Source: a virus
Taxonomy: Duplodnaviria > Caudoviricetes
DNA: 28,230 nt
Reading direction: 5' to 3' (one strand)
IMG/VR virus record: IMGVR_UViG_3300043427_001721
Location: 1-28,230 of that record
A model generated the notes under the pieces. It worked only from the letters and a program-made list of their open reading frames with translations. It was not told where the DNA came from and did not search any database. The translations under genes were made by a program, and so were the position numbers. Of the stretch, positions 3,615 through 26,382 are shown piece after piece. Every line of letters begins with the position of its first letter. Positions within the stretch are counted from its first letter, which is position 1.

Positions 3615-4419
3615 TTGCCTTCTCCAGCCACGCCTGCGCTGCTGCGATGTTCGTGTCCTGGGCGCGTTTCGCCTTCGTCGGCGGGATCGGCCAGGGTTGC
3701 GACCAGGGACGATCGGGATCGCCGAAAAATCTTGCCGGGTTCAAGACCATCCGGTTCGTCGCCTGGACGTGAGCGGCGTATCGCTCGACGCCTTCGCGCA
3801 GATTCTCCCAGGACGCGCCGAGCTCGAGGTGCCTGCGGATGTGGTGCTCTGCGCTGATCCAGTCCGTGCGGCCCGCGTGTGGCGGGTATATCGCCTTCAG
3901 CGCCTCAAATTCCCGGCGCTCGTCGCCTTCCGCGCGCGCGAGTTTGGCTACCTCGAGCGAAGAGATTACGCATGAGGAGTTAGATGTCGTTGGAGATATA
4001 GTCTGGAGTCTGGAGTCTGGTGTCTGGATAGGTTGATCGTTCGTTGAACGATTCGTAGCACGAGTCGTGCTCGGCTCGTTGGCCTGTCGGTCCGCTCTTC
4101 GTCGCGCTTCTCGTTGCTCCGCGATCCGTCGATTCGTCTCTCGCTGCTCGTCCGCCTTCGCGATTTCGCGCTGGGCTCTCGAGTTAGTCCACCCACCCTC
4201 GCCCTGCTCCCAGAATTCCTCGAGGACGCGCTTCACGGCGTCTCGGTCGAGCTTCGAGACTGCGCCGACGATGCGGCAGAGCTGCGTCATGTCCGGCGGG
4301 AGCGGACGCTCGGTCGCGTAGTGATGATCGAGGAGCGACCTATATGCGCCGCGCTCGGTCAGCGAGAGGTGCCCGGTGTCACGTTGAAAGTCGCCGATGT
4401 AGTGCTTGTAGAAGTTCAC
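3601..4419 (-). CDS. phage replication initiator (YdaU/DUF1376 family)
   Basis: N-terminus MNFYKHYIGDFQRDTGHLSLTERGAYRSLLDHHY; central iteron-bearing linker; downstream of cro. Confidence 0.8.
   Translation of the reverse strand: MNFYKHYIGDFQRDTGHLSLTERGAYRSLLDHHYATERPLPPDMTQLCRIVGAVSKLDRDAVKRVLEEFWEQGEGGWTNSRAQREIAKADEQRETNRRIAEQREARRRADRQANEPSTTRATNRSTNDQPIQTPDSRLQTISPTTSNSSCVISSLEVAKLARAEGDERREFEALKAIYPPHAGRTDWISAEHHIRRHLELGASWENLREGVERYAAHVQATNRMVLNPARFFGDPDRPWSQPWPIPPTKAKRAQDTNIAAAQAWLEKASAAG
4001..4086. repeat. probable replication origin: 4x GTCTGG(A/T) plus TCGT-N3-ACGA iterons
   Basis: Tandem 7-mers at 4001-4028; TCGTTGAACGA (4041), TCGTAGCACGA (4053) and degenerate copies at 4065 and 4076, all inside the initiator gene. 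Confidence 0.65.
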
Positions 4420-4673
4420 GCCGCCTCCCCGACCTGGTTCACGCGGCGCCTAACTCTCGAGTCGCGGATCACGCGCCAGTCGACATCCGGTCGGAGTTCT
4501 TCGACCGTGACGATCCCGTTGCTCTCCCGCTCGATGTTGATCGCCAGCGATTCCGCGGCCTTTTTGTAGCCGTAGCTCACATTCCGCAGATGGCCTCCCG
4601 TCGTTCCGACGCGCTCTGCGAAACGGTCGCGCTGCCGGAGGGTCATGGTTTGTAGAAACTCTTTGAGTGTCAT
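4416..4673 (-). CDS. cro: Cro-like HTH regulator (YdaS-like)
   Basis: HTH FAERVGTTGGHL and VTVEELRPDVDW motif; divergent from the repressor. Confidence 0.85.
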   Translation of the reverse strand: MTLKEFLQTMTLRQRDRFAERVGTTGGHLRNVSYGYKKAAESLAINIERESNGIVTVEELRPDVDWRVIRDSRVRRRVNQVGEAA

Positions 4674-5759: not shown

Positions 5760-5944
5760 GCTCGGTCGAGTACATCGAGCCACGCGACACGCGAGACGCT
5801 CCGCGGCCTGTTGCCCGCATGGAGCTCGACACGGACATTCCGCTCGGCGAGCTCATTCGCGCATTGAGCGCATCGGGCCTCTCGCTCTCGACGTTACACG
5901 GCGGAAGGCAGCTTATCCATCGAGTGCCGAAGGAGGCCGCATGA
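5756..5944 (+). CDS. hypothetical protein
   Basis: GTGA and ATGA overlaps with its neighbours. Confidence 0.65.
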   Translation: MSSVEYIEPRDTRDAPRPVARMELDTDIPLGELIRALSASGLSLSTLHGGRQLIHRVPKEAA

Positions 5945-6552
5945 TGGAGCAGCGATCGGCGGAATGGTTCGCGGCTCGTCTCGGCTGCGCGACGGCGTCG
6001 AAATTTCGCGCGGTTGTCTCGAAGCTGAAGAGCGGCAAGCCCGCCCAGGCTCGCATCGACTACGCAATCGAGCTCGTGACCGAGCGCTTGAGCGGACAGC
6101 CGACTCCGCATTTCACCACCGCGGCGATGCAGCGCGGTGTGGACCTCGAGCCCGCAGCGCGTATCGAGTACGAATTTAAGAAACGAATCGAGGTGCTCGA
6201 GACAGGGTTCTTGCGTCATCCGTCGTTGATGACTGGTGCATCGCCCGACGGTCTCGTCGGTGCCGATGGTCTCATCGAGATCAAATGCCCCTCGAGCACC
6301 GTTCACGTCGAGACGTGGTTAAACGGAATGCCGGACGACCACATCGCCCAGGTGCAAGGTCAGCTCTGGATCACCGGCCGTGCCTGGTGCGACTTCGTCT
6401 CATTCGATGACCGCCTGCCGAAAGAGCTCCAGCTCTACGTTCAGCGCGTCGAGCGCGACGACGTTTTCATCGCGAACCTGGACCTGGAGGTTCGACAGTT
6501 TCTTGCCGAGGTCGACGACCTCGAGCGCCAATTAAGGGAGAAGGCAGCATGA
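5941..6552 (+). CDS. YqaJ/lambda-exonuclease family recombination nuclease
   Basis: QRSAEWFAARLG-ATAS, GASPDGLV, IEIKCP and QVQGQLW motifs. Confidence 0.93.
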   Translation: MMEQRSAEWFAARLGCATASKFRAVVSKLKSGKPAQARIDYAIELVTERLSGQPTPHFTTAAMQRGVDLEPAARIEYEFKKRIEVLETGFLRHPSLMTGASPDGLVGADGLIEIKCPSSTVHVETWLNGMPDDHIAQVQGQLWITGRAWCDFVSFDDRLPKELQLYVQRVERDDVFIANLDLEVRQFLAEVDDLERQLREKAA

Positions 6553-7262
6553 CGACAGCGATTCAATCCGTCAGCGTGACGGACATCGAGAAGATGGCGA
6601 CGGCGGTCGCAAAGTCCGGGCTCTTCGGAGTCCGTACACCCGACCAGGCGATGTCTCTGATGCTGATTGCCCAGGCGGAAGGCCTGCACCCGGCGATCGC
6701 CGCGCGGGACTATCACATCATCCAGGGTCGGCCTTCGCTGAAAAGCGACGCGCTGCTCGCTAGGTTTCAAGCGAACGGCGGGAAGATCGAGTGGATCGAA
6801 TACACCGACCAGGCGGTCGCCGCCAAGGTGTCGCACCCGCAAGGCGGGACGGTCGAGATTCGCTGGACGTTCCAGATGGCCGAACGCGCCGGGCTCACGA
6901 AAAACGCAACCTGGCGCCAGTACCCGCGACAGATGCTTCGCGCTCGAGTGATCTCCGAAGGCGTTCGCGCCGTGTTCCCTGGGGTCGCGGTTGGCGTCTA
7001 CACCTCCGAGGAGGTCCAGGACATGACGATCTCGAGCTCGAGCGCGACAGTCGTCGCCCAGGAGCCGCAGCTCGCCGATCCGGTTCACCTGGTACGCGAA
7101 GCACCAGACATGGAGACGCTGAAGACTCGATTCCGCGATGCCGTCGTGCTCGCTAGGAAATCGAAGGATCGCGAGCTCGAGGAGTCGCTGAACTTTGCGA
7201 AGGATTCCCGGAAGGCGGAGCTCGAGGCGATCGTCGTCGAGCCGCAGGAGGTCGCAGCATGA
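6549..7262 (+). CDS. RecT/Red-beta-like ssDNA annealing protein
   Basis: Paired with the exonuclease; IIQGRPSL and WRQYPRQMLRAR...GVYTSEE motifs. Confidence 0.8.
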   Translation: MTTAIQSVSVTDIEKMATAVAKSGLFGVRTPDQAMSLMLIAQAEGLHPAIAARDYHIIQGRPSLKSDALLARFQANGGKIEWIEYTDQAVAAKVSHPQGGTVEIRWTFQMAERAGLTKNATWRQYPRQMLRARVISEGVRAVFPGVAVGVYTSEEVQDMTISSSSATVVAQEPQLADPVHLVREAPDMETLKTRFRDAVVLARKSKDRELEESLNFAKDSRKAELEAIVVEPQEVAA

Positions 7263-7668: not shown

Positions 7669-7737
7669 TCATCGACGATGCGCGCGTCACACCGCCAACG
7701 GAGTCCGGCCCCGTCGTGCAAGCCGGAGAGGTTGCAA

Positions 7738-8169
7738 ATGACCATCGAATTCGACGAGTGGGACAAAGAGTGGGATCGGACATCTCACACCGTCAGCGAA
7801 TACCAGAGAGAAATTCGCGAAATGCGCGAGCGGCTGATTTGGTATGTCGCGCGGATCAGCGCGCTTGAGACGGAGATTCAGAGAGATGCGGAAGAGCGAC
7901 GCGCGATGGGTGCAGGAGCCATGACATCAACAGAGAGCTCATTCTACGCACAAATGTCTGACCTTGAGATTGTCGGTCATGTCGTAGTTATTCCAGACGC
8001 GAGCGAATTATCGCAGGCGCTCGCGCTTCGCGTATGTCGTCTTGTTGAAGAGCGCGAGAAAGCGCAAAGGATCGCCGCAGATCTACAGCGAAAGCTGCTC
8101 TCTTTACAGCTTGGGATCGCTGAAGACAAGCTCGACGCCTATGTTGAGATCGTAGAGCGCGCGGCATGA
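7738..8169 (+). CDS. coiled-coil hypothetical; probably two genes (7738-7924, 7921-8169) fused by a 1-nt insertion
   Basis: GGAGAGG RBS before ATG 7738. The +1 frame from 7880 reads REMRKSDARWVQEP* with TGA overlapping ATG 7921. Confidence 0.55.
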   Translation: MTIEFDEWDKEWDRTSHTVSEYQREIREMRERLIWYVARISALETEIQRDAEERRAMGAGAMTSTESSFYAQMSDLEIVGHVVVIPDASELSQALALRVCRLVEEREKAQRIAADLQRKLLSLQLGIAEDKLDAYVEIVERAA

Positions 8170-8288
8170 ATCCGGCCCTCCGAGAGCTTGTCGAGCTGCT
8201 TGCTCGAGCTGCCTACCAGGAGCTCCGGGACGCGCCGCCAGCGCCCCAGGATGGGCAGAAGTTGATCGAGAGCCGCCTGTCATCATAA
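8166..8288 (+). CDS. 40-aa helical protein, candidate recombination directionality factor
   Basis: MNPALRELVELLARAAYQELRDAPPAPQDGQKLIESRLSS. ATGA overlap upstream; ends 9 nt before the integrase ATG. Confidence 0.6.
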   Translation: MNPALRELVELLARAAYQELRDAPPAPQDGQKLIESRLSS

Positions 8289-8297
8289 GGTGACGCC

Positions 8298-9893
8298 ATG
8301 CGCGCCATTATTTACGCCCGATATTCGACCGAACATCAGACTGAATCGACGATCCTCGATCAGCTTCGTCGATGCCGCGACTACGCGAAAAATCACGGAT
8401 TAAAGATCGCCGCCGAGTACACCGACGAGGGTATCTCCGGCGCTGCGATAGGGAATCGACCAGGCGTTCAGAAGGCGCTCGCCGAGCTCGAGCGCGGGGA
8501 TGTTCTCCTGGTCGTCGACACTACGCGCCTTTCGCGTTCCCAGGATCTTGCGCCGTTGCTCACTAGGCTGCGGCATCGAGGCATCCGCGTCGTCGGCGTC
8601 CTGGACGGGTTCGACTCTGACAGTCGCACCGCCAGGATGCAGGCGGGTCTTTCCGGGATCATGTCCGAAGAGTTTCGCGCGCAGATCGCCTCGAGAACTC
8701 ACTCGGCGCTCGATATGAGAGCGCGCCAGGGAAAGGCGACGGGCGGGAAGTGTTACGGGTACTCGAAGGCGGGAGAGATCATCGAGGCGGAGGCCGCGAT
8801 CGTGCGCGAGGTGTTTGAGCGCGCAGCTCGAGGTGAGGCGATGAAGGCGATCGTCTGCGATCTGAATCGACGCGGAGTGCCGTCACCTGGCTCGAGCTGG
8901 GAGCGAAAGGCTCGCCGATCGGACGGGATGTGGCTCGTCTCGGCGATTCACTCGATGCTCGGGAACGATCGCTACATCGGCCGGGTTGTGTGGAATCGCT
9001 CGATCTGGAAGCGAGACCCAGACACCGGCAAGCGTCAGCGCGTCGAGCGACCGGAGTCGGAATGGATCGTGACCGAAGGTCCGGCGATCGTTCAGCTCGA
9101 GACCTGGGAGAAGGTTCGCGCCCTGGCGACGCCGAGAAAGTTCCACAATGGAACGAAAGGTCGCGGTCCGAAGTACATCCTTTCGGGGATTCTGGTTTGC
9201 GGGGAATGTGGCGGGAAGTTGGTCGCGACCGGCGCGAACGGTTCCTGGTACTACTGCGGCACCCGGCACCAGGGAGGCGACTCGGCCTGCTCGATGGCGA
9301 TCGGCGCCAGGCGGGACGTTGCCGAGGAGAAGCTGCTCGAGCCGATTACAAAACAGCTCCTCTCGAGCGACGCGGTCGAGCTGGCGGTCGCAATGATCCG
9401 CCAATGGCGGCGGGATGAACGCACGGAGTCGACGCGCCCGGCAGAGCTCGAGGAGCTTGATCGCCGGATCGCGAAGCTCGAGGCGCAAGTATCCCAAGGG
9501 ATACTCGACCGGGAGGACATCGCGCCCTCGGTAGCCGCGCTCCTGGAGCGCCGTCGAGCCCTGCTGGCGAAGTCCTGGCGGAAGGCGAACTCGAGGTCGA
9601 ACGTCGACCAGGCGGTCGCCGAGGAGGCCTATCGGCAGGCGGTCGCGAATATGCGGGAGGCTTTGCAGGGACCGGCGGCTCGAGCTCGAGCTGCGGTTCA
9701 CGAGCTTCTCGGGGACGTTGTGTGCCGTCCCGAGGCTGGAGTCCTAGTCGCTGCTGTCGCTGTGAATACCGCGCCGCTCATGCGAGCGGCGGGTGTTTCA
9801 CAGAATGGTAGCGGGGGCTCGCTTCCTTATTATGAAATGGTACCACTTGTTCGAGGCGGTCCGCCCTTATTTTCAAAGCTGCTCGCGGCCTAG
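8298..9893 (+). CDS. int: large serine recombinase (integrase)
   Basis: YARYS with catalytic Ser10, TRLSR, recombinase domain, zinc ribbon LSGILVCGECG...YYC...C, coiled coil. Confidence 0.96.
   Translation: MRAIIYARYSTEHQTESTILDQLRRCRDYAKNHGLKIAAEYTDEGISGAAIGNRPGVQKALAELERGDVLLVVDTTRLSRSQDLAPLLTRLRHRGIRVVGVLDGFDSDSRTARMQAGLSGIMSEEFRAQIASRTHSALDMRARQGKATGGKCYGYSKAGEIIEAEAAIVREVFERAARGEAMKAIVCDLNRRGVPSPGSSWERKARRSDGMWLVSAIHSMLGNDRYIGRVVWNRSIWKRDPDTGKRQRVERPESEWIVTEGPAIVQLETWEKVRALATPRKFHNGTKGRGPKYILSGILVCGECGGKLVATGANGSWYYCGTRHQGGDSACSMAIGARRDVAEEKLLEPITKQLLSSDAVELAVAMIRQWRRDERTESTRPAELEELDRRIAKLEAQVSQGILDREDIAPSVAALLERRRALLAKSWRKANSRSNVDQAVAEEAYRQAVANMREALQGPAARARAAVHELLGDVVCRPEAGVLVAAVAVNTAPLMRAAGVSQNGSGGSLPYYEMVPLVRGGPPLFSKLLAA
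9796..9837. other. putative attP inside the integrase 3' end, matching the tRNA-fMet 3' end
   Basis: Imperfect inverted repeat (14 of 20 positions pair) centred on GG 9816-9817. Minus strand of 9806-9818 reads GCCCCCGCTACCA. Confidence 0.75.
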
Positions 9894-10142
9894 CCGACAG
9901 CTCGCCAGGGAGCGCACAGAGCGGAGCTTGATGTTTGCCTCGTTGAGGCATTCGGTCGCGTCGAGGTAAGCCCTGGCGAGGTCTCCGTTTGTCTGGAGCG
10001 ATCGCTCCGGGACGACACACTCTGCCGTCAGGTAGTCAGGGATCGGGGGGCACGTCTCGACGATCACCGAGCGACCAGCGCACCCGGTCAGGGATAGGAT
10101 CGAGAGCCCAATCGCGGCTCTCCGGGTCGGTCGTCGTGGCAT
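9873..10142 (-). CDS. o-spanin (Rz1-like lipoprotein)
   Basis: Lipobox LTGC, Pro/Cys-rich mature part, TNGDL motif; overlaps the Rz-like gene. Confidence 0.85.
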   Translation of the reverse strand: MPRRPTRRAAIGLSILSLTGCAGRSVIVETCPPIPDYLTAECVVPERSLQTNGDLARAYLDATECLNEANIKLRSVRSLASCRLGREQL

Positions 10143-10401
10143 TGGATAGATCCTCGCGTTTCCTATTTGCGGAGCGACGTATCGCTACCAGATCACGCTC
10201 GAGGCTGGTCAGGACGAGCTGCTGCTCGGCGAGTGCCTCGGCGAATCGTTCGCCCGCCTCCGCCGTCGCGGCCTCCCATCGAGCCCGCTCCGCCTCGACG
10301 CCGTTCCCGTAGGCCCATCGGTAAGCCCCGACCAGGAGCGCCAGGGAAGCCAGGACGGCGACCAGGTGCGGGAGGTATCGCAGGAGCCAGGGCGGGATCA
10401 T
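10036..10401 (-). CDS. i-spanin (Rz-like)
   Basis: N-terminal TM helix, coiled coil, C-terminal WALDPIPD; ATG 10401 in an ATGA overlap. Confidence 0.8.
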   Translation of the reverse strand: MIPPWLLRYLPHLVAVLASLALLVGAYRWAYGNGVEAERARWEAATAEAGERFAEALAEQQLVLTSLERDLVAIRRSANRKREDLSNATTTDPESRDWALDPIPDRVRWSLGDRRDVPPDP

Positions 10402-10613
10402 TCGCGCGGGTCGCGGCCGGTGAGCCAGGTGATGTACCAGATCGCCTTCCCGGCCTCCTGCTTCGGCGCGTCCTTCTTTCCCAGGCGCCAGAGGTAAGCC
10501 ATCGCGGAGCCCTTGACGTAGCCCTGGAACTCCTCCGGCGTCAGAGCCGCGCGCAGCGCGTCGATACACTCGATCTCGCCCTGGTAGTGGCTCGGGTTGA
10601 TCGCGTCCTTCAT
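10398..10613 (-). CDS. DUF3310 (SaV / T7 gp1.7-like) protein
   Basis: DAINPSHY...ECIDAL...YLWR.GKK...KAIWY motif. Confidence 0.85.
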   Translation of the reverse strand: MKDAINPSHYQGEIECIDALRAALTPEEFQGYVKGSAMAYLWRLGKKDAPKQEAGKAIWYITWLTGRDPRE

Positions 10614-11806
10614 GCCGCCCTCGGGATGGTGATCCATTCGGTCTTCGATGTGGTCGTGCCGCGTTGCACATAGACCGGCATTCGGAACGTAATGCCGTGT
10701 TGCGGGTGCGTGATCCAGAGCGCCTGCTGCGCCGGTTCGACGTCGAAGTTGTTCGCGTCGGCGTACTCGTCGTAGCCCTTGAGCGTCCCGTTTACGATGA
10801 AGCGATTCATGTGAATGTACTGGTGCCAATGCCCGAGGAGCATGACGTCGAAGCTCTTGTCGGTCTGGACGTTGCGCGCGCGTTTCTTTTTGTCGCCTCG
10901 AGCGATCGGACCGAGCGCGCCGATCATTCCGTCGCCGCCTCGAAACTGATCGCCGTGCGTGAGGAGGTATCGCGTCCCGAAGATCTTGTAGTAGGCGTCC
11001 GGCCCTTCCGGGATCAGGAACGTCACGCGGCGATCGGCCTCGAACACCTTTGCGAGCATCTGGTACAGAAGCCAGTCGAAGTTCGTGTGGTTGCGTCGCT
11101 TCGCTCGAGGCTTGCGACTAGTGCGGCCGTGGTTGCCGGTGACGCAGGGAATGAAGACGGCGCCAAACTCATCCGCTAGGGTGCGAACGCACCAGGACAG
11201 GACACCGACGAGCTCGATCAGAGCTGGCATCGTCGGCATTTCGTTCGTTTCGGATAGCTCCTCGTGAATGTCGCCCGAGAGCATATCGCCGCCCAGGATA
11301 AACACACAGCCGGGATACTTGCCGCCCTGGATGTGCTTTCGCAGGAGCTCGATCGCGACCGTGATGAAGGTGCGCGCTCGATCCTTGGCGATCTCGACGT
11401 TGTACTCGTTCACGCCTCCGATCTCGGCAGGACGGACGACCTCGCCGAAGTGCCAGTCGCTCGCGAACAGCGTCGGGACGCCTGCAAACTCCGACACCGG
11501 CCGCGACGGTTTCGTCAGCCAGGCAGGCGGAGCCACCGATGCGCGCGAGAGCTTGAAGATCTCATCGCGAACGACCGCGTCGTTCAGCATCTTGCTCTCG
11601 AGATCTTTGATGTGAGCTCGAGCGGCGCGAAGCTGCTCCTCGAGGGTGTGCGGACGTTGCTCCGCTTGTTCGATTTTGTCGACGTGCAGACGGATCGTGC
11701 CGGAGTTCACTCCGAGAGCGAGAGCCGTCTGTCGCAAGTTGCGACCGTTTTTCAGCCAGGCTGCGTGAACAGCCACCGAGTCGAGGTTCTTCTTTGCTGT
11801 TGTCAT
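10610..11806 (-). CDS. calcineurin-like metallophosphoesterase with N-terminal HTH
   Basis: SDWH, GGD, GNHG, THGD and GHWH motifs; N-terminal NLRQTALALGVNSGTI. ATG 11806 in an ATGA overlap. Confidence 0.85.
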   Translation of the reverse strand: MTTAKKNLDSVAVHAAWLKNGRNLRQTALALGVNSGTIRLHVDKIEQAEQRPHTLEEQLRAARAHIKDLESKMLNDAVVRDEIFKLSRASVAPPAWLTKPSRPVSEFAGVPTLFASDWHFGEVVRPAEIGGVNEYNVEIAKDRARTFITVAIELLRKHIQGGKYPGCVFILGGDMLSGDIHEELSETNEMPTMPALIELVGVLSWCVRTLADEFGAVFIPCVTGNHGRTSRKPRAKRRNHTNFDWLLYQMLAKVFEADRRVTFLIPEGPDAYYKIFGTRYLLTHGDQFRGGDGMIGALGPIARGDKKKRARNVQTDKSFDVMLLGHWHQYIHMNRFIVNGTLKGYDEYADANNFDVEPAQQALWITHPQHGITFRMPVYVQRGTTTSKTEWITIPRAA

Positions 11807-12099
11807 TCTGTTTTGAAAGTCGTAAGCGCTTGTTGTAAGAGCGCGCCCAGGTTGTCGACGAACGCCTCGTCGTGAGAGAGATCGTGGTTCATCATGTCCA
11901 GGAGTGCGTGACACAGCTCGTGACAGAAGGTCGCCTGGAGCTGCGTCTCGATCGGATCTGCTAGGAGGTCGATGCGGAGCTTGTCGGGTATCCAGATTCC
12001 GACGTTGCCCTTGCCGTGACGCCATTTCGAGCGCGGAATGACGCGGACCTTGATCGTATGACCGAGGAGCTGGAACTCCTTCGGGATGCCGGTCGTCAC
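11803..12099 (-). CDS. small HExxH zinc metallopeptidase-like protein
   Basis: TFCHELCHALL with a downstream E (DEAFV). Confidence 0.7.
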   Translation of the reverse strand: MTTGIPKEFQLLGHTIKVRVIPRSKWRHGKGNVGIWIPDKLRIDLLADPIETQLQATFCHELCHALLDMMNHDLSHDEAFVDNLGALLQQALTTFKTE

Positions 12100-23413: not shown

Positions 23414-23685
23414 AGCTGTCGCACCTGTACCAGGACCGAGCGGTCCTCGATGCGTCCGCCCGGCGTCGTGACGCGATTCGTGATGAGGTAGTCAGCTCCG
23501 GCCGCTCCGCCGGAGAGGAAGGCGCGCGTCACGTTCGCCGTCACACCTTCCGAGACGATCGAGAGCGCTGCGGGAACTTCCCAGGCCGAGGTCGTGACCG
23601 CGTCCCCGTTCAGCCAGGGATTCCAGTCGACCTCGAAGTCGATCGTCGAGTTTGGATCTTTCGTGAATGCCGCGATGATCGTCAT
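23410..23685 (-). CDS. small Ig-like fibre adaptor protein
   Basis: KDP...DF..DW..WL.GD...S.W and LSGG..G..Y..TN..TT..GR patterns, seen next to fibre genes. Confidence 0.65.
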   Translation of the reverse strand: MTIIAAFTKDPNSTIDFEVDWNPWLNGDAVTTSAWEVPAALSIVSEGVTANVTRAFLSGGAAGADYLITNRVTTPGGRIEDRSVLVQVRQL

Positions 23686-25223
23686 GCAGCGATTCTCCTG
23701 TTATTGCGTGAGACCTTGATCGTGCGGCCTTCCGCTTCGACCTCGATCGAACTGTCAGCGCCGACCTTGAGCGTCGAGCGCTGCGGAATAATTTCGCGGC
23801 GATCCTGGAACGGAACCTTCAGCTCTCGAGAGTCCGGCGTGAAGGTGCGATTCCGTAGCCGTCCGCTGACGGTCGCATCGCCCTCCGCATCGCCGTCGAC
23901 GGAGCCGCGCCCTCGCGCCTGTGCGCTGATCTCGGCGGTGCCGAAGACCAGGCCCAGGATCGGGCCGCGCCCGTAGATCGTGACGATAGAGCTCGCCGAG
24001 CCCGCCGCGTCGCCGACCTGGCGACCGTAGGCCAGGATCGAAGCGCTCGCGCTCGAGGTGCCGCTCTCGTTGCCGTCGACCGCGCCGCGCCCGTAGGCCG
24101 GAACATCCTCGACGGTGCTCTCGCCCGAGATCGCGCCCTGGACGATTGAGCGCCCGTCGATCGAGGCCTCGACCGTAGCGTCGCCCGCGATCGAGCCGGA
24201 GCCCATCGCGAAGGCGCGCGCCTCGGCGCTGACTGTTGCGTCGCCTGCAATCGAGCCATCCGCCGGAGCGAATGCCAGGATGACCGCGCTCGAGCTCGAG
24301 GAGCCGATCGCCGCGCCAGGTGCGGAGATCTTCCGCTGCCCGGAGCCCTCGACCGTCGCCAGGCCTTCGGCGGAGCCGGAGCCCTGGGCGGTTGCCAGGA
24401 TGTCGCCGGACACCGAGCTCGAGGAGCTCGAAGCACCCTCGGCCGTAGCGGTCGCCAGGATGTCGCCGCTCGCCGCCGCAGAGCCCGCAGAGGCGGCATC
24501 TGCCAGACCGTAGGCGAGGACATCCCCCGCGATCGTGCTCGCCCCCTGCGCCGCCCCATTAGCCGGGAAGACGCCCTGGATTGAGCCGTCGACCGTCGAG
24601 GTGCCGGACGTTTCGCCGCGGCTCGAGAACCTCGCGGTCCCCGAGGCGGTTGCAGTCGCCGAGCCCTCGGCCTGGCCGGATGCCTGGCCGGTTGCGAACG
24701 CATCGCCCGAGACGGACGCGCTGCCCGAGCTCGAGGCGTCGAGTCCGGTGCGCGCCTGGACATCGGCCGCGGCCGTAGCCGTCCCCGCAGCAGCGCCCTC
24801 GCCTTCGATACGCCCGGAGCCGTCGGCGGTTGCCGTCGAGCTCGAGCTCGAGGAGGCGGAGATCGGCCCCGACGCAATGACCGCGCCCGCGACCGTTGCA
24901 GATCCCGAGGAGATGCCGCTCCCGGCGCCCGCCGCAATGATCGCGCCAGAGACCGCCCCGGTCCCGGCTGCGGAGCCGGTCGCCGAGGCGATTGCCCGAG
25001 AGGTTGCCGACGTCGTCGACGAACCCGCGGAGCTTGCAATCGGACGGCCGATCGCGTCGATGTCACCCGTGACCGTTGCCGAGCCAACACTCGCGCCAGG
25101 CGAGGAGATCTTCGGAACGAGCGCGCCGGTGACGGTCGCTGACCCTGCGGCGGTGCCGTACAGCGTATCGCCGACGGCATAGCCGAAAAGCCAGTAGTCG
25201 CTCTGGACGTATAGGCCGCTCAT
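23682..25223 (-). CDS. Ala/Gly/Ser-rich repetitive virion protein (513 aa)
   Basis: About 21-aa quasi-repeats of the type G.A.GS..G.ATV.G.I.A; aromatic N-terminus YVQSDYWLFGYAVGD. Confidence 0.75.
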   Translation of the reverse strand: MSGLYVQSDYWLFGYAVGDTLYGTAAGSATVTGALVPKISSPGASVGSATVTGDIDAIGRPIASSAGSSTTSATSRAIASATGSAAGTGAVSGAIIAAGAGSGISSGSATVAGAVIASGPISASSSSSSTATADGSGRIEGEGAAAGTATAAADVQARTGLDASSSGSASVSGDAFATGQASGQAEGSATATASGTARFSSRGETSGTSTVDGSIQGVFPANGAAQGASTIAGDVLAYGLADAASAGSAAASGDILATATAEGASSSSSSVSGDILATAQGSGSAEGLATVEGSGQRKISAPGAAIGSSSSSAVILAFAPADGSIAGDATVSAEARAFAMGSGSIAGDATVEASIDGRSIVQGAISGESTVEDVPAYGRGAVDGNESGTSSASASILAYGRQVGDAAGSASSIVTIYGRGPILGLVFGTAEISAQARGRGSVDGDAEGDATVSGRLRNRTFTPDSRELKVPFQDRREIIPQRSTLKVGADSSIEVEAEGRTIKVSRNNRRIAA

Positions 25224-25456: not shown

Positions 25457-26020
25457 CTACGGTGCGCTGTCTACTGAAAATTCGATGGTCGCCGTGTCGA
25501 GTACCGCCCCGCTCGAGGCGAGGCGGATTTCGATCGCTAGGTTTCGCGTCTGGTAGTTATTGGTCGCGGATAACGTCCACTCGCGAGTCGTCGCAAGGTT
25601 GAGCCACGAACCCGTCGTCCCGCCCACCGTTCCGCCGGAGCCCGACCAGGTCGCATACACATCGAACAGCGACGCGGCCCCGCTCGTCAGCCACTCGCCG
25701 CTGATCGAGACAAGAGTCCCGCCGACGTTCGTGCGGGACGCTGCGCCGGTACTGGCGAGCCGATATGTGGCAGTCGCCGTGCCGCCGATGCCTGCCTTCG
25801 AGTTGTTTATCGCCGACTGGTTGCTAATCGCGACGCTCGCGTTCGCCTTACCGTAAAAGCTCGAGAGCGAGATCGCGCCGCTCGAGACTCCGGCCAGCGT
25901 TCGCAGCGCCGACTCGTCGAGACTGCTCGTCGCGGTCGCGGACCGCCCGAGCTCGAGGTTAATCGAGCGATCGGTTGTCGATCCGCCGATCGAGATCTCG
26001 CCGGAGGAAACGAGAGGCAT
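25457..26020 (-). CDS. Ser/Gly/Thr-rich virion accessory protein
   Basis: MPLVSSGEISIGG...INLELG...GAISLSSFYGK, an N-terminus typical of genes that follow fibre genes. Confidence 0.75.
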   Translation of the reverse strand: MPLVSSGEISIGGSTTDRSINLELGRSATATSSLDESALRTLAGVSSGAISLSSFYGKANASVAISNQSAINNSKAGIGGTATATYRLASTGAASRTNVGGTLVSISGEWLTSGAASLFDVYATWSGSGGTVGGTTGSWLNLATTREWTLSATNNYQTRNLAIEIRLASSGAVLDTATIEFSVDSAP

Positions 26021-26382
26021 TAGGCCGCGACGTCAGCCGGTGCTGCGGGAGCTTCTGGAGCCGGAGCCCAGGGAAGAGGCTTCTGCTCGAGCGCGGCCTT
26101 CTCGACCTCCTTCGCGACGACGTAGGCGATGTGCGCCTGGTACGGTGCGAGCTGATCTTCCTGCGACCACACCCAGGCCTCGACCTCTGCGGGAGTGAGC
26201 TGCGAGAAGTCGACGAAATTCTCGGGAGCCGGATCGCCGACGTTGACCGAGATCGGAAGCTCGAAGCTGCACCCGCTGTCGGTGCCCTTGAGCGTGACGT
26301 CGACCTCCTTCACTACGTTTTGCAATTCGCCGACGTTGTGAACGCGGACCGCGTTGATCTTTAGCGTGTATTCGATAGCCAT
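26020..26382 (-). CDS. fibre-associated protein (chaperone-like)
   Basis: LQNVVKEV...FVDFSQLT..EV.AW...LPW pattern; follows the fibre gene. Confidence 0.7.
   Translation of the reverse strand: MAIEYTLKINAVRVHNVGELQNVVKEVDVTLKGTDSGCSFELPISVNVGDPAPENFVDFSQLTPAEVEAWVWSQEDQLAPYQAHIAYVVAKEVEKAALEQKPLPWAPAPEAPAAPADVAA

Follow-up and report, generated by a model that had tools for sequence, protein, structure and literature searches.

A clade of serine integrases with the attachment site inside the integrase gene inserts at initiator tRNA genes: a possible switch of integrase stability

The large serine integrase of the phage described here very probably recombines an inverted-repeat attP, situated within its own gene (int), with the 3' end of the host initiator tRNA (tRNA-fMet) gene, which would rebuild the tRNA antisense to int and replace the tail of the enzyme with Arg-Ile, as in its relatives. 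Insertion at the tRNA gene, antisense orientation and exchange of the integrase tail were all observed in relatives; in this phage insertion is likely to do the same, rebuilding the tRNA and trading a tail of 24 residues for Arg-Ile. The C-terminal exchange, which the initial annotation of the sequence had missed, is a more concrete and better-supported consequence of integration than the antisense damping it had proposed.

The stretch of DNA analysed (28,230 nt, hereafter the window) is the whole record of a 28-kb virus of lambdoid type, with cro, cI, exo and recT on one side and genes for tail and lysis functions on the other (Table 1). No tRNA genes were found in the 28-kb window, so the record represents the free, attP form. 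The int gene closes the rightward early block and faces a convergent Rz1-like gene, whose 3' end overlaps the last 21 nt of int (9873-9893); the terminal codons are there doubly constrained. The profile of the int product matched PDB chains of the SPbeta, Bxb1-size, TP901-1 and A118 integrases, the catalytic serine, S10, is invariant and the domains are those of the large serine integrases. DNA nearly identical to the phage is present in lake metagenomes; the record may itself derive from two of the runs concerned.

Table 1. Features of the integrase region and of the early genes, in window coordinates.
Feature	Position	Strand	Remarks
Lambdoid switch and early operon (cro, cI, exo, recT), continuing towards int	4416-7262		Gene calls; co-transcription presumed from gene order
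Conserved 40-aa microprotein, candidate recombination directionality factor	8166-8288	+	Directly upstream of int
Large serine integrase (int), free (attP) form	8298-9893	+	531 aa; Resolvase, Recombinase, Zn_ribbon_recom (Pfam), PHROG 95
Conserved hairpin, candidate weak terminator or trailer stem	9760-9803	.	2 nt after the rebuilt CCA (minus strand); encodes PLxxAAG
attP, imperfect inverted repeat	9796-9837 (arms 9796-9815 and 9818-9837)	.	14/20 matches; axis common to relatives
Copy of tRNA-fMet nt 64-76	9806-9818	-	nt 67-76 (9806-9815) would be donated, rebuilding acceptor stem and CCA
Predicted crossover dinucleotide	9816-9817	.	tRNA C65-C66, where T stem and acceptor stem meet; bases 1 and 2 of codon G507; symmetry axis
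Swappable 24-aa tail ending ...LLAA, P' arm	9819-9893	+	Arg-Ile-stop in integrated relatives
AA-ending genes besides Int	4416-4673, 5941-6552, 6549-7262, 7678-8169, 10610-12025, 23682-25223, 26020-26382

The minus strand from 9818 to 9806 reads GCCCCCGCTACCA, the tRNA-like 13-mer that the initial annotation had correctly located inside the 3' end of int, where it is in frame and encodes G504-S-G-G507. This 13-mer has no other match in the window when up to two mismatches are allowed. With the E. coli tRNA end as query and up to one mismatch, 9806-9818 was again the sole match in the window (0.03 expected; 3/100 shuffles), the mismatch falling on tRNA position 72 (window 9810). The 12/13 agreement annotated earlier proved to be an artefact of the E. 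coli reference. In the family around a Steroidobacter metagenome-assembled genome (MAG), 51/61 genomes carried a match (50 of them in single copy) and 52/52 matches had U72, so that the match to the likely host tRNA is 13/13. The 13-mer was identical in all 14 viral relatives whose 3' ends were examined (of 16 fetched; 76-100% identity, many being near-copies), in which the flanking sequences vary.

When 26 axes were scanned in 20 distinct non-tRNA loci, a single peak of inverted-repeat symmetry was obtained at 9816-9817, with a mean of 12.7/22 matches against 4.0-7.4 for the 25 other axes; the same axis gave 12.4/22 in 27 metagenome loci. Large serine integrases typically use a short attP of two imperfectly matching inverted arms that flank a 2-bp centre: excerpts of PMC3783163 describe an inverted repeat of about 45 bp around a central dinucleotide for phiC31, Bxb1, A118/LI and SPbeta. 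Because the precise cut is masked by a run of G common to both sites, the crossover is placed by symmetry. On the tRNA it falls at C65-C66, and the phage would accordingly contribute the last ten nucleotides; as the annotation held, the identity is almost all on one side, with 10/13 bases to the left of the crossover, two in the central dinucleotide and one to the right.

Analysis of 36 genome loci of related integrases showed, in 23, a tRNA-Met(CAT) gene lying antisense to int with its 3' end at the 3' end of int. At 8/36 loci the core was followed by non-tRNA sequence and 5/36 were unassignable; several of the 36 integrase genes were frameshifted. Without the unpublished genome G011, one locus of which (L027) is also among the 41 loci of the hairpin scan described below, the tRNA-Met(CAT) count is 22/34. 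The 61 metagenome loci that include the 3' end (out of 80 fetched) comprised 20 tRNA junctions, 27 free or hybrid forms, 8 duplicates and 6 loci without the motif. Among the named hosts of the tRNA-Met loci, Steroidobacteraceae and unclassified proteobacteria predominated; a further host was Oceanicaulis, at 33% identity, in which the core differs (TGGGTGCGGGGG) and follows the host tRNA end in prophage L048 and in the free virus L082. Where flanking sequence sufficed, a related integrase was found to occupy 4/27 tRNA loci, two of the four coming from genomes already in the set.

In the host tRNA, which is usually encoded by a single gene, U1xU72 is unpaired and the anticodon stem is rich in G-C pairs. 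Initiator tRNAs are marked by a CAU anticodon, an unpaired 1:72 position and an anticodon stem with three G-C pairs, and the target tRNA carries these features. The integrated relatives thus support the annotated target, the 3' end of tRNA-fMet, and the restoration of acceptor stem and CCA by the phage arm; elements carrying a tRNA 3' fragment that restores the gene were found at 33-65% identity. They also display the predicted antisense orientation, and bear out the threefold use of the 13 bases as protein code, attP arm and tRNA end.

Junctions with tRNA-Met genes, which the annotation had proposed to look for, were thus obtained for relatives and not for the phage itself: pattern scans of metagenome and viral contigs gave 0 matches to a junction of the phage with a tRNA. 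Neither a joint nor a loose tRNA end at 9816 was seen in the assembled contigs of eight runs (those with small word shares, X18-X20, being excluded from the evidence); such contigs are strandless and drop rare forms, so that missing joints are no proof that lysogens are absent and carry no information on antisense RNA. The closest integrated forms share 63-65% identity with the phage. We infer a Steroidobacter-like gammaproteobacterium as its host, which is not fixed, since the bin that contains the closest genome match, the free-form contig L017 (86%), belongs to the Beijerinckiaceae.

The same data bear on whether the 13-mer is a chance match, or a sequence kept merely as a GSGG linker. At two mismatches 0.79 matches would be expected in the window by chance, but all 47 metagenome cores are identical over 12 nt and use the same codons, and in relatives the core directly links the element to the tRNA. 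In some relatives the same DNA is read in another frame as VAGAG, preserving the nucleotides while losing the peptide, which places the constraint on the DNA and makes GSGG unneeded as protein. We therefore rejected a chance or linker origin on the junction data of the relatives; its probability is negligible.

Several observations concern the range of this arrangement. The core was missing in L054 (51% identity) and L266 (44%), although both extend past the end of the gene; these may represent a target switch. Among distant integrases (25-27% identity), L090 ends at a tRNA-Leu and others of the group of L090, L094 and L096 end in GCGGRI, so the arrangement reaches far and can switch tRNA. At L213:2585-2640 the core appears inverted relative to the integrase gene, possibly by site-specific inversion. 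In G002 (C3:29431-84622) ten same-strand cores extend over 55 kb and end at tRNA-fMet, with one related integrase found; smaller arrays occur in G001, G004, G008 and G009. Cassettes lacking an integrase seem to pile up at this site.

The consequence of insertion for the protein was visible among 120 homologues, of which 34 have tRNA-derived ends (RI or GFEPATFGL), 74 free-type tails and 12 other ends. Some free-type tails belong to tandem hybrids rather than to a true attP. Ten proteins were looked up, six of which had multi-member clusters, and in 5/6 of these both tails occurred on the same integrase; the free and integrated forms thus differ at the C-terminus, with att inside int, as in the Mx8 and DsiB systems discussed below. 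Two-tail pairs were identical or nearly so before GSGG (551/551 residues for P0022/P0131, 506/507 for P0031/P0146). The DNA pairs L221/L222 and L251/L227 are identical over the 300 nt left of the core and divergent to its right, and L201/L209, at 63-64% identity to the window, agree at 268/300 positions left of the core. For one 8.7-kb element (L040) the two junctions rejoin into a 17/22 inverted repeat. In the predicted model of the phage integrase the last confident helix spans residues 492-497, a short strand is predicted at 513-516 of the free tail, and residues 503-511 and 522-531 have pLDDT below 50. As the exchange falls past that helix, integration would keep every domain of the enzyme.

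In the lysogen the rebuilt tRNA would be followed on the minus strand by a hairpin (Table 1) with a folding z of -4.5. It reaches a strength of at least -19.5 kcal/mol in 15/15 close loci, is also present in the integrated L209, and shows four pairs with two-sided change in a nine-sequence alignment, the structure being drawn from the same sequences. Family-wide, the hairpin ranked in the top 10% of gene windows at 13/41 loci; we rejected it as a feature of the whole family and regard it as a clade feature. It folds equally well on both strands, and assignment to a strand by G-U asymmetry failed (11 against 10). A consensus terminator scan of 8100-10200 detected no minus-strand terminators. 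The CCA of a host tRNA-fMet in L181 is immediately followed by a 50-nt hairpin with perfect pairing (-42.5 kcal/mol).

The initial annotation had suggested that the restored tRNA promoter fires into int. Meaningful damping of int in the lysogen by the resulting antisense RNA appears unlikely to us. The tRNA always faces into int, sigma-70-like boxes are visible by eye upstream of host tRNA genes, and integration displaces the host terminator (a hairpin with at least 5 U at 8/23 sites that lack this integrase), while the U-tract of the phage hairpin is weak, reaching at least 5 U in only 2/15 close loci; some read-through is plausible. Against this stand the strength of the hairpin after the CCA in every close locus and its covariation. 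We infer that the hairpin takes over at least part of the role of the host terminator moved away by integration, and it probably limits read-through past the rebuilt CCA. Moreover, judging by gene order, int would be the last gene of an early operon under CI repression, which should leave little sense RNA in the lysogen.

Integrases with att inside their own gene are already known, and the systems compared here are cited from excerpts of the respective papers unless stated otherwise. The phiC31, Bxb1, A118 and SPbeta integrases share with the present enzyme the domain order, the catalytic Ser10 and an inverted-repeat attP (PMC3783163); unlike in those systems, attP is here part of int, and the integrase is directed at the 3' end of a tRNA. 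IntP/IntX of Mx8 also has attP in int and a long C-terminus that becomes short on integration, but is a tyrosine recombinase exchanging 112 residues for 13, against 24 for 2 in the serine integrase, and the reported effect concerns activity and not stability (PMC6070905, PMC4701971). The DsiB ssrA islands of Dehalococcoides (PMC3146451) and the streptococcal rumA ICEs (PMC4701971) are closer: att overlaps the 3' end of the gene for a large serine recombinase, the C-terminus of which varies, and DsiB likewise targets the 3' end of a stable RNA and forms tandem islands (PMC3146451). Their targets are tmRNA and rumA, as opposed to tRNA-fMet, neither is a lambdoid phage, and the excerpts contain no degron proposal for either (PMC3146451, PMC4701971). 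Archaeal suicidal integrases of the SSV type have att inside the integrase gene but are tyrosine recombinases that are split in two (PMC8371274); the present integrase is not such a fragmented enzyme, as all domains stay intact and only the last 24 aa change. In mycobacteriophage BPs, a C-terminal degradation tag whose coding sequence spans attP is lost on integration; lysogeny is set by the stability of Int, and stabilised Int causes loss of integrated DNA, so that Int stability can matter (PMC3694055). The attP of BPs is located within the repressor gene, with the tag on Int retained, whereas here the candidate tag is on the integrase itself (PMC3694055); the cI gene of the phage (4736-5422) is intact and 4.4 kb from attP.

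As regards tRNA targets, tRNA genes were not known as targets of serine integrases in the excerpted text of Islander (PMC4383910), and a supplement of Durrant et al. (PMC10083194, row 958) lists one cluster of large serine recombinases with a tRNA-fMet attB, tRNA being absent from the main text. In a corpus lying mostly outside subscription journals, our literature search found neither a serine integrase with an own-gene attP at tRNA-fMet, although the TIGER database or bioRxiv supplements may list such islands, nor the loss of an integrase degron on integration. Nothing specific to the arrangement appeared in PMC12424338, nor in the excerpts of PMC12429752, PMC5883640, PMC12884075, PMC13626063 and the tycheposon preprint.

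The free-form tail ends in ...LLAA, and the ends of such tails resemble C-terminal signals for ClpXP. After de-duplication, 28/42 free-type tails ended in Ala against 63/485 background ORFs, 12/42 against 31/485 ended in AA, and 40/42 against 262/485 had a basic residue just upstream of the end. The Ala-ending tails cluster on the tree and are hence not independent. They made up 21/28 at identities of at least 60% (spanning nine tail lengths), 8/20 below 52%, 8/27 in the metagenome loci and 0/5 among free tails matched to RI forms. On the last two counts we rejected a degron universal to the clade. In the phage itself 8/38 genes end in AA, mostly early ones, including those of Cro, Exo, RecT and Int but not CI. 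The integrases of RR1-A and Mae-JY30 (31-32% identity) have tRNA-end-like cores and end in ...FVA and ...IAA. Both are isolated phages, and thus cultured systems, in which the cores at the int 3' end (L274:3059 and the end of L277, respectively) read VVA.

That the free-form tail is a ClpXP-type tag removed by integration is, in our view, possible, with slightly less than an even chance. To the same degree it could be that the exchange is a neutral by-product of an att site overlapping a dispensable C-terminus, with both forms of the enzyme alike. The exchange does fall beyond the last confident helix, the tails differ in length (5 to 40 aa) and in frame, many have no terminal Ala, and the DsiB authors, in the text excerpted, raised this trivial explanation too; yet terminal Ala and basic residues recur over many tail lengths far above the background, and terminal Ala is also above the 8% Ala inside the tails. 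Doubtful, by comparison with the tag, is an effect of the tail on catalytic directionality or activity instead of stability. The predicted strand in the free tail, a hydrophobic and basic pattern common to free tails and the precedent of Mx8, as excerpted, would suit it, but the tail sequences are poorly conserved and a separate candidate directionality factor is encoded upstream.

This candidate is a 40-aa protein with no Pfam match. A screen of 50 loci gave 23 rows with a homologue immediately preceding int, in phages as well as in islands; 20 were aligned, and several homologues end in AA. A complex with Int residues 155-500 was predicted with a score of 0.55 against 0.00 for the best control, the runs agreeing on at least 96% of contacts and the partner having a pLDDT of at least 63; the mark for this score was reached by 116/157 solved and 2/215 mismatched pairs, with only 18 of the solved but both mismatched pairs lying at or below 0.60. 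The model weakly suggests that this candidate directionality factor may bind Int.

Should the tail be a ClpXP tag, the enzyme expressed from the free phage would be short-lived, and the enzyme expressed from an induced prophage, lacking the tag, would be stable and would excise the phage together with the 40-aa protein as likely directionality factor. With a stable integrase in the prophage and an unstable one in the free phage, excision would be favoured once the prophage is induced, and renewed integration would be kept in check. This degron switch, a novelty open to testing, is one that we advance tentatively; it is perhaps somewhat less probable than not that initiator-tRNA integration serves a broad clade of serine integrases as a stability switch, with excision aided by the new 40-aa factor.

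These results describe a widespread clade of serine integrases that targets an essential, usually single-copy tRNA. Serine-integrase tRNA targets are a class excluded by a standard island-finding method, and a core of 12 bp falls below the length that most att finders can detect; a C-terminal GSGGRI provides a simple marker of the integrated state, and environmental proteobacteria could be engineered with the highly conserved attB as a natural landing pad. In phage lambda, sib limits re-integration and favours excision after induction. If the tail is a degron, the lifetime of the integrase would be tied to the state of integration with no extra regulator, and the switch would be a protein-level counterpart of sib retroregulation, contained in 13 bases that serve as codons, att arm and tRNA end.
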